From a virus (Duplodnaviria > Heunggongvirae > Uroviricota > Caudoviricetes), in IMG/VR virus record IMGVR_UViG_2531839530_000005, positions 1 to 40,441 of that record: a stretch of 40,441 bases of DNA, one strand, 5' to 3'. The notes under the pieces are model-generated. The model saw only the letters and a program-made list of their open reading frames with translations. It was not told the origin of the DNA and made no database searches. Shown in pieces: positions 39,708-40,070 of this stretch. Positions within the stretch are counted from its first letter, which is position 1. Each line of letters opens with the position of its first letter. The position numbers and the translations under genes were made by a program.

Positions 39708-39838
39708 TTTTAACGTAAATGGATTGTTAAATGTGTTTTGGTTGTGATATAACCAAAAAAGACCGGAATACAGAAATTCGAGTAAATTTCGAGTAATTTC
39801 GGGGAGACGTTTGCAACTAATTGATTTTAAATACAATT

Positions 39839-39872
39839 AAAAAAAGACCGAATACGATTCCTGTATTCGGTC
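39839..39872. repeat. Prophage attachment-site copy (right junction) overlapping the sdsR terminator
   Basis: AAAAAAAGACCGAATACGATTCCTGTATTCGGTCC; direct repeat of 1067-1100 with 3 mismatches in the shared core. Confidence 0.6.
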
Positions 39873-39941
39873 CAGGGAAATGGCTCTTGGGAGAGAGCCG
39901 TGCGCTAAAAGTTGGCATTAATGCAGGCTTAGTTGCCTTGC
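39841..39941 (-). ncRNA. sdsR: SdsR (RyeB) small RNA
   Basis: Minus-strand sequence GCAAGGCAACTAAGCCTGCATTAATGCCAACTTTTAGCGCACGGCTCTCTCCCAAGAGCCATTTCCCTGGACCGAATACAGGAATCGTATTCGGTC+U-tract matches recalled SdsR. Confidence 0.75.
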
Positions 39942-40032
39942 CCTTTAAGAATAGATGACGACGCCAGGTTTTCCAGTTTGCGTGCAAAATGGTCAATAAA
40001 AAGCGTGGTGGTCATCAGCTGAAATGTTAAAA

Positions 40033-40070
40033 ACCGCCCGTTCTGGTGAAAGAACTGAGGCGGTTTTTTT
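40033..40070. terminator. Bidirectional terminator (yebY on minus strand; antisense RyeA transcript on plus strand)
   Basis: Hairpin CCGCCCGTTCT...AGAACTGAGGCGG followed by T7 on plus strand and T-run on minus. Confidence 0.4.

Follow-up and report, generated by a model that had tools for sequence, protein, structure and literature searches.

SdsR (RyeB) is a sigma-S-dependent, Hfq-binding small RNA (sRNA) that represses tolC, mutS, and the genes for porins, and left unchecked it is toxic; its antagonist is RyeA (SraC), and transcription of ryeA dampens both the sdsR promoter and pphA. We describe here this gene pair at the right end of a lambdoid prophage contained in a 40,441-nucleotide (nt) stretch of DNA (IMG/VR record IMGVR_UViG_2531839530_000005, the whole of which is referred to as the window), where the phage occupies the sdsR terminator. 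In Escherichia coli K-12, the sdsR promoter is subject to interference from ryeA transcription, the pphA mRNA derives mainly from read-through of the sigma-S sdsR promoter, and conversion of the ryeA −10 element TATGGT to CTCGAG with primer PM_RyeAF abolished RyeA (Choi 2019, PMC6610125). Integration at this position has a precedent in Salmonella, in which the last 23 base pairs (bp) of ryeB constitute a repeated insertion site used by PhiW104, and PhiW104 lysogeny alters the 5′ portion of RyeA, lowers RyeA, and raises RyeB (Balbontin 2008, as summarized in PMC7380047). The same work (J Bacteriol 190:4075; Salmonella enterica DT104) is also cited in PMC3333887 and PMC3603311, and "RyeB" is already in use as a site label in island catalogues. 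Going by these citing papers, the phenomenon is already known, having been shown in principle for PhiW104 in 2008.

The locus in the window resembles that of PhiW104 in that the attachment site corresponds to the last ~23 bp of ryeB, internal to ryeA, and the 5′ part of ryeA is replaced; as expected of a hot spot, the core is repeated at both ends, int adjoins it, and relatives carry the empty site. It differs in its host, E. coli, whose native terminator stem contains a U.G pair and whose U-tract contains a C, so that two substitutions in sdsR mark the integration event. A further consequence of integration in E. coli concerns pphA, which lies directly downstream and relies on sdsR read-through. 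Relative to the K-12 RyeA/SdsR system characterized by Choi 2019, the sdsR promoter, sdsR body, RyeA body, and RyeA terminator all match except at 39844 and 39853; the differences are that the sigma-70 ryeA promoter is no longer upstream and pphA is no longer downstream. A further likeness is to integration in tRNA and tmRNA genes, where an inverted-arm hairpin (here GACCGAATAC / GTATTCGGTC) acts as attB with exchange in the loop. By analogy with tRNA genes, the RNA would stay functional because the 3′ part of the gene is duplicated on the phage. In contrast to those genes, the target here is the terminator of an Hfq-dependent sRNA that is transcribed on the other strand too, and the phage restores SdsR but not RyeA.

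In lambda, int reads across attP. The recombination module in the window is lambda-like, with an arm-binding Int, an Exc-family Xis, direct arm-type repeats (39774–39795), and an IHF consensus adjacent to the core, and transcription of int crosses the att site, which gives the int mRNA a different 3′ untranslated region (UTR) once the phage has integrated, as in lambda. The order and number of sites differ from those of lambda, and what lies downstream of int in the prophage is the antisense strand of a host sRNA, for which lambda has no counterpart.

A lambdoid prophage sits in the sdsR terminator and has displaced the RyeA promoter and pphA; on the overall reading that we consider fairly probable, a promoter-like motif in the adjoining phage arm is mainly part of an IHF region, and antisense RNA, SdsR, and pphA expression are shifted in the lysogen. 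In the proposed mechanism, a lambda-type tyrosine integrase would insert the ~38.8-kilobase (kb) prophage into the Rho-independent terminator of sdsR, using the hairpin arms as inverted core sites and exchanging strands within the 7-nt loop; sdsR survives with a 3′ stem arm and U-tract taken from the phage. Antisense transcription across sdsR would be altered, and probably reduced, in the lysogen, so that SdsR would appear earlier or at a higher level, by analogy with PhiW104. Residual antisense RNA could originate from weak promoter-like sites in the phage arm, from int read-through, or from both, and pphA would lose its sigma-S-dependent read-through expression.

Prophage junctions at sdsR

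From left to right, the window contains yebW, pphA, a short native intergenic stretch, the ~38.8 kb prophage, sdsR/ryeA, and yebY, and it is 100% identical to the bovine E. coli strain E2865 over the part tested. Coordinates were related to K-12 by mapping the MG1655 RefSeq entries for ryeA (1923066..1923337, plus strand) and sdsR (1923104..1923207, minus strand) onto the window. The Rfam model SdsR_RyeB (RF00111) matches 39938..39839 on the minus strand with 118.1 bits (gathering threshold 38), and SraC_RyeA (RF00101) matches 39835–39979 on the plus strand with 179.1 bits (gathering threshold 37). Between 39839 and 40099, the window departs from K-12 at two positions only: G>A at 39844, which changes UCUCUUUUU to UCUUUUUUU in SdsR, and C>T at 39853, which converts the U.G pair of the terminator stem to U-A. 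The original prediction, that sdsR is intact while its U-tract has been rebuilt from phage DNA, therefore agrees with these results (AAAAAAAGACC in the window versus AAAAAGAGACC in K-12), and it was if anything too modest. Judging from the alignments described below, the phage contributes not just the U-tract but the entire 3′ arm of the terminator stem, amounting to the last 15 to 26 nt of sdsR. A stronger sdsR terminator after integration was considered and rejected, given that the hairpin energy is −15.8 kcal/mol in both the window and K-12 versions and the U-run alone is lengthened, from 5 to 7.

The crossover could be placed by a three-way comparison of the two att cores with the K-12 empty site. 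The attL and attR cores agree at 29 of 32 bases, and attR covers sdsR positions 39839–39869. An uninterrupted attP, AAAAAAAGACCGAATACGATTCCTGTTTTCG, is present in phage record PP818812, the int-attP region of which is 96% identical to that of the window. Because this free attP possesses both substituted bases, those at 39844 and 39853 are phage alleles. At both positions the attL core has the K-12 allele, and its resemblance to the phage begins only past CCTGT. The exchange thus took place within ACGATTCCTGT (39854–39864), a segment that comprises the terminator loop and two flanking pairs on each side. The terminator arms that enclose it, at 39846–39855 and 39863–39872, form a perfect inverted repeat. 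The source of the free attP, PP818812.1, is named "Actinobacillus phage vB_Apl-pPE4", and its attP core is an enterobacterial sdsR terminator sequence; the Actinobacillus host looks doubtful, or else the phage was derived from an E. coli lysogen.

The 5′ consensus of RF00101, AAUUAAAAAAAGACCGAAUAC, equals the phage-derived junction at 39835–39846 base for base, and the native K-12 sequence AGAUAAAAAGAGACCGAACAC differs from it. Since the SraC_RyeA model begins about where homology between occupied and empty sites stops, its seed was probably drawn in part from occupied or scarred sites.

Table 1. Positions of the principal features in the window (strand as given; a dot denotes no strand)
Feature	Position	Strand	Basis and remarks
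pphA (protein phosphatase 1)	277..936	-	Pfam Metallophos; K-12 annotation and alignment
Orphaned native sigma-70 ryeA promoter	992..1030	+	TGGACT 992-997, 19-nt spacer with TGt, -10 TATGGT 1017-1022, +1 at 1030
attL core TAAAAAGAGACCGAACACGATTCCTGTTTTCG	1067..1098	.	Three-way alignment with K-12 empty site; bacterial DNA to the left, P′ arm of the phage to the right
Phage DNA invertase/resolvase	1398..1988	-	Pfam Resolvase and HTH_7; first phage gene inside attL, oriented toward pphA
Excisionase, lambda Xis/Exc family	38378..38665	+	Pfam PF07825, E = 6.5e-14; annotated excisionase in strain E2865
Tyrosine integrase (int), lambda-type arm-binding domain	38631..39707	+	Arm-DNA-bind_1 PF09003, Phage_int_M PF22022, Phage_integrase PF00589
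Conserved P-arm block TTGTTA (39724-39729), 18 nt, TGaTATAAC (39745-39753)	39724..39753	+	Extended -10-like candidate or recombination-protein site; position weight matrix (PWM) 8.05 bits
20-mer GACCGGAATACAGAAATTCG followed by arm-type direct repeats AAATT(T)CGAGTA	39761..39803	.	Repeats D1, D2, I2
Promoter-like motif TTGCAA (39811-39816), 15 nt, TACAAT (39832-39837)	39811..39837	+	Sequence; scanner; PWM
IHF consensus WATCAANNNNTTR, plus-strand CAACTAATTGATT	39814..39826	-	Inside the TTGCAA-15-TACAAT motif
attR core TAAAAAAAGACCGAATACGATTCCTGTATTCG	39838..39869	.	Three-way alignment; free attP in PP818812; phage-derived to at least 39853
sdsR (ryeB), intact	39839..39942	-	Rfam SdsR_RyeB; K-12 mapping
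Retained RyeA/SraC body	39854..40072	+	K-12 RyeA nt 54-65 through 272; own terminator ~40033-40068
yebY, conserved gene upstream of sdsR	40100..40441	-	Open reading frame list; annotation

Displaced ryeA promoter and pphA

The native ryeA promoter was located from the PM_RyeAF primer context, GTGTGTGT-TATGGT-TGACTATAAAG, which puts the −10 at window positions 1017–1022, and from the RefSeq ryeA +1, which falls at 1030. It therefore remains at attL, 38.8 kb from sdsR, as the original prediction had proposed in assigning the native promoter and 5′ region of RyeA to the left junction (937–1066), and it lies on the pphA side rather than to the right of 39872. The first 54–64 nt of RyeA have been left at attL together with this promoter. 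At the other end, the phage P arm occupies the DNA upstream of 39846, so phage sequence stands in place of the 5′ part of ryeA, and the K-12 ryeA 3′ end (full length 272 nt) corresponds to window position 40072. Transcription from the orphaned promoter would enter the P′ arm and run antisense to the invertase gene, and no terminator-like site was found for its transcript before 1904; a chimeric RNA initiated there would retain ~25–30 nt complementary to the 3′ end of SdsR. In an empty-site metagenome contig from an enterobacterium other than E. coli (2830–3300), the ryeA promoter is kept as TGGACT-N17-TGgTATGGT, about 30 nt further from sdsR, and a promoter in such a position may account for the longer SraC of Salmonella with no phage involved.

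The 38.8 kb now separating pphA from sdsR break the read-through coupling of the two genes, and pphA has instead come to lie downstream of the phage-encoded invertase. No terminator-like site was found from the invertase gene (1398–1988) to attL, and the sole hairpin between the invertase gene and pphA is the degenerate one of attL, which reaches only −4.5 kcal/mol on the minus strand.

The attP P arm and its promoter-like motif

The RyeA body is now preceded by 138 bp that constitute the P arm of attP, which includes arm-type Int repeats, an IHF consensus, and another conserved block. For comparison, 78 unique P arms ending in the same core were assembled; grouping at 88% identity gives seven classes. 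All 78 contain the IHF consensus at least in relaxed form, at a constant distance from the core, and 66 match it perfectly. Equally constant are TGnTATAA, in which "n" is the sole variable base, and (A/T)TGTTA, each found in 78/78 arms and all seven classes; the sequence between the two varies among arms. This conserved TGTGATATAA block could represent an extended −10 promoter or binding sites for Xis or Int. The P-arm 20-mer GACCGGAATACAGAAATTCG occurs exactly in 117 IMG/VR stretches and is a diverged second copy of the core half-site, resembling the sdsR-sense strand of the terminator arm and loop. The arm-type repeats co-vary from class to class. A duplication is also visible between 39747–39771 and 39831–39855 (left half of the core plus flank), with 72% identity (ATATAACCAAAAAAGACCGGAATAC versus ATACAATTAAAAAAAGACCGAATAC), and the P-arm copy may be an extra core-type Int site. 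An 8-bp hairpin at 39736–39758 was rejected as an int terminator, as it lacks a U-tract and the other arm classes do not conserve it.

The motif TTGCAA-15-TACAAT points into the antisense strand of sdsR, in the position and orientation originally described, and had been put forward as a possible replacement for the RyeA promoter. Read directly, it matches five of six consensus bases in each hexamer with a 15-nt spacer; the promoter scanner reads it as TTTGCA-16-TACAAT (9/12 matches) and reports two promoter-like sites in 39500–40441, versus 1.2 ± 1.3 in shuffled sequence. A sigma-70 PWM, a rough matrix of our own built from textbook hexamer frequencies, assigns the motif 9.6 bits and the proven ryeA promoter 8.7 bits. 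A score of at least 9.6 bits is reached at 56 of the 80,830 window positions, such that ~0.1 site of this quality is expected by chance per 140-nt arm. From its letters, the motif is a credible promoter candidate and not a significant one.

Comparison across arms does not favor the motif as an evolved promoter. TTGCAA occurs in 36 and TACAAT in 35 of the 78 unique arms, confined to the E. coli-type class A, one of the seven; other classes have TCTAAA, GGAAAA, and similar sequences at the aligned −10 position. Within class A, the hexamers vary at roughly the rate of the arm as a whole (0.02–0.03 versus 0.04 per column), a within-class measure that cannot distinguish a promoter from neutral sequence, and the key A of the −10 is lost in 6 of 41 unique class A variants (TGCAAT, TGCTAT, TGAAAT). 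Scanning every arm class for promoters revealed no strong one at a conserved position; several classes do have scattered −10-like hexamers in the 20 nt nearest the core. A lambda-type Int with Xis leads one to expect an IHF site beside the core, which explains the AT-rich motif without a promoter. The motif would accordingly be mainly the IHF-site region of the P arm rather than an evolved replacement promoter. The proposal that it replaces the RyeA promoter is thus not supported in the form in which it was made, the match being at chance level, restricted to one of seven classes, and carrying an IHF consensus in its spacer. Viewed from the sequence comparisons as a whole, the original prediction is partly supported: its structural half is right and understated, and its promoter half is a consensus match that the comparative data do not favor.

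Possible sources of antisense RNA in the lysogen

Three other accounts of the antisense RNA were weighed against the reading in which the motif is chiefly an IHF region and antisense transcription is probably reduced. One takes TTGCAA-15-TACAAT as a working sigma-70 promoter that replaces the native one and yields a shortened RyeA of ~229 nt from ~39844. Its hexamers are good, outscoring those of the proven promoter, it faces the RyeA body, an RNA begun at ~39844 would span SdsR apart from the U-tail, and several other arm classes likewise have some −10-like hexamer no more than 20 nt from the core. The 15-nt spacer is suboptimal, however, no TG extension is present, and the spacer itself is the conserved IHF consensus; its frequency is that of chance, six of the seven arm classes do without the motif, and some class A variants have lost the key −10 base. 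The predicted RNA is, moreover, shorter than K-12 RyeA (272 nt), whereas the SraC of Shigella flexneri is longer. The one relevant published blot, that of S. flexneri BS176, argues against the motif as the main start, and we regard the account as unlikely. The supplements of the M90T Shigella transcription start site paper have no entry for yebY, sdsR, ryeA, or pphA.

The length of the Shigella RNA speaks instead for the conserved block, if TTGTTA-18-TGaTATAAC is a phage-borne RyeA promoter with a start at ~39760. The RyeA of ~313 nt that it would produce is ~41 nt longer than that of K-12, which fits S. flexneri BS176, where SraC is ~35 nt longer than in E. coli and a putative −10 lies ~35 bp further upstream (Froehlich 2012, PMC3333887). 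The longer SraC cannot be put down to a native site of the E. coli type, since empty sites in E. coli share at least 98.7% identity. S. flexneri SFBU1023, which is not the blotted strain BS176 and is the sole S. flexneri genome read, has the same int-attR-sdsR junction, and we infer a link between the longer SraC of BS176 and this junction. The invariance of TGnTATAA in all arms, with the variable base coinciding with the free "n" of an extended −10, also suits a promoter. The same conservation is explained equally well by an Xis or Int site in a lambda-type P arm, though, and the element sits in the diverged duplicate of the core flank. Its −10 hexamer ends in C or G and never in the near-universal T, the spacer is 18 nt, and the score is 8.05 bits. 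A longer SraC in Salmonella may also be native, as the empty site of another enterobacterium has its TATGGT promoter ~30 nt further out. Overall, a promoter in this block seems somewhat doubtful. The chances are similarly modest for an account that dispenses with a dedicated promoter and makes the antisense RNA the 3′ UTR of int (and xis) transcripts extending to the RyeA terminator. The excisionase and integrase genes are the last two phage genes before sdsR, and int reads toward attR and sdsR, co-oriented with RyeA. The scanner found no terminator-like site on the plus strand in 39500–40441, including the interval from the int stop codon to 40033, and the sdsR hairpin has no U-tract on that strand. 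With int co-oriented and no terminator in between, int and xis transcripts should cross sdsR and run to the RyeA terminator, in the same geometry as lambda; the predicted RNA would exceed 1.4 kb. Against this, int is normally very weak in a stable lysogen, which would leave little antisense RNA except on induction.

Several points weigh against the displacement of antisense transcription and the IHF explanation that we prefer. The motif, scoring above a genuine ryeA promoter, may well fire, and the presence of an IHF site does not preclude a promoter. The levels of RyeA, SdsR, and pphA in the lysogen are ones that we infer, the direction of the SdsR effect rests on extrapolation from Salmonella and promoter mutants of K-12, and the Balbontin 2008 result is used second-hand.

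Distribution of the integration site

A 301-nt K-12 query spanning the site was compared with 5426 complete E. coli genomes. The empty site is uninterrupted in 5191 of them; the remaining 235 give no uninterrupted match, and 228 of these have the integrase end and P arm described here. Such carriers, ~4% of the complete genomes, belong mostly to Shiga-toxin-producing O26:H11, O111, O103, and O55:H7. Beyond E. coli, integrase genes adjoin sdsR in one Citrobacter contig and in one genome from a different genus, and the core GACCGAATACGATTCCTGT is common to a Salmonella phage and IMG/VR prophages spanning at least seven arm classes. A scan of genome contigs with one integrase sequence retrieved two close relatives only, and an alignment query would reach further.

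Two individual genomes merit description. In E. coli O121 strain 201805972, an IS1A element lies in the 3′ end of int of this prophage type, beside the P arm, and probably fixes the prophage at sdsR. CP191473.1, labelled Salmonella enterica, encodes a YebY that is 89–90% identical to that of Kosakonia and ~80–83% identical to those of other genera, so the Salmonella label is probably wrong. An integrase and an Exc gene lie beside sdsR in this entry, and the P arm there belongs to a further class, in which ATGTAA...TGTGGTATAAG and the IHF consensus are retained.

Other regulatory RNAs of the prophage in the window are recognized by Rfam, namely, RalA (beside ralR), sok, C4 (with its a1/b1 targets), isrK, and DicF. 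Regulatory RNA positions in the prophage are 24394–24596, 26769–26939, 33346–33397, and 38095–38273.

Implications

To the Salmonella precedent, the present locus adds an E. coli case, a base-level map of the phage-derived sequence, an IHF explanation of the promoter-like motif, and the uncoupling of pphA, together with two alternative sources of antisense RNA that differ in their predicted sizes.

A more far-reaching scenario, which we consider quite improbable, is that the P arm carries a promoter for a phage-flavored RyeA antitoxin, that SdsR and RNase III destroy int/xis mRNA, and that pphA is rewired. If so, the promoter would reside in the conserved TGnTATAA block, supplemented in the E. 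coli class by the core-proximal TACAAT, and the int/xis transcripts would carry a 104-nt perfect complement of SdsR. Stationary-phase SdsR with RNase III would then destroy these mRNAs in a host-sRNA version of lambda sib retroregulation, tying excision to sigma-S status, with induction depleting SdsR in turn, and pphA would move from sigma-S read-through to the phage invertase transcript. On the reading that we prefer, in which the prophage displaces the native ryeA promoter, its removal could shift stress mutagenesis, efflux, and envelope regulation across pathogenic lineages.

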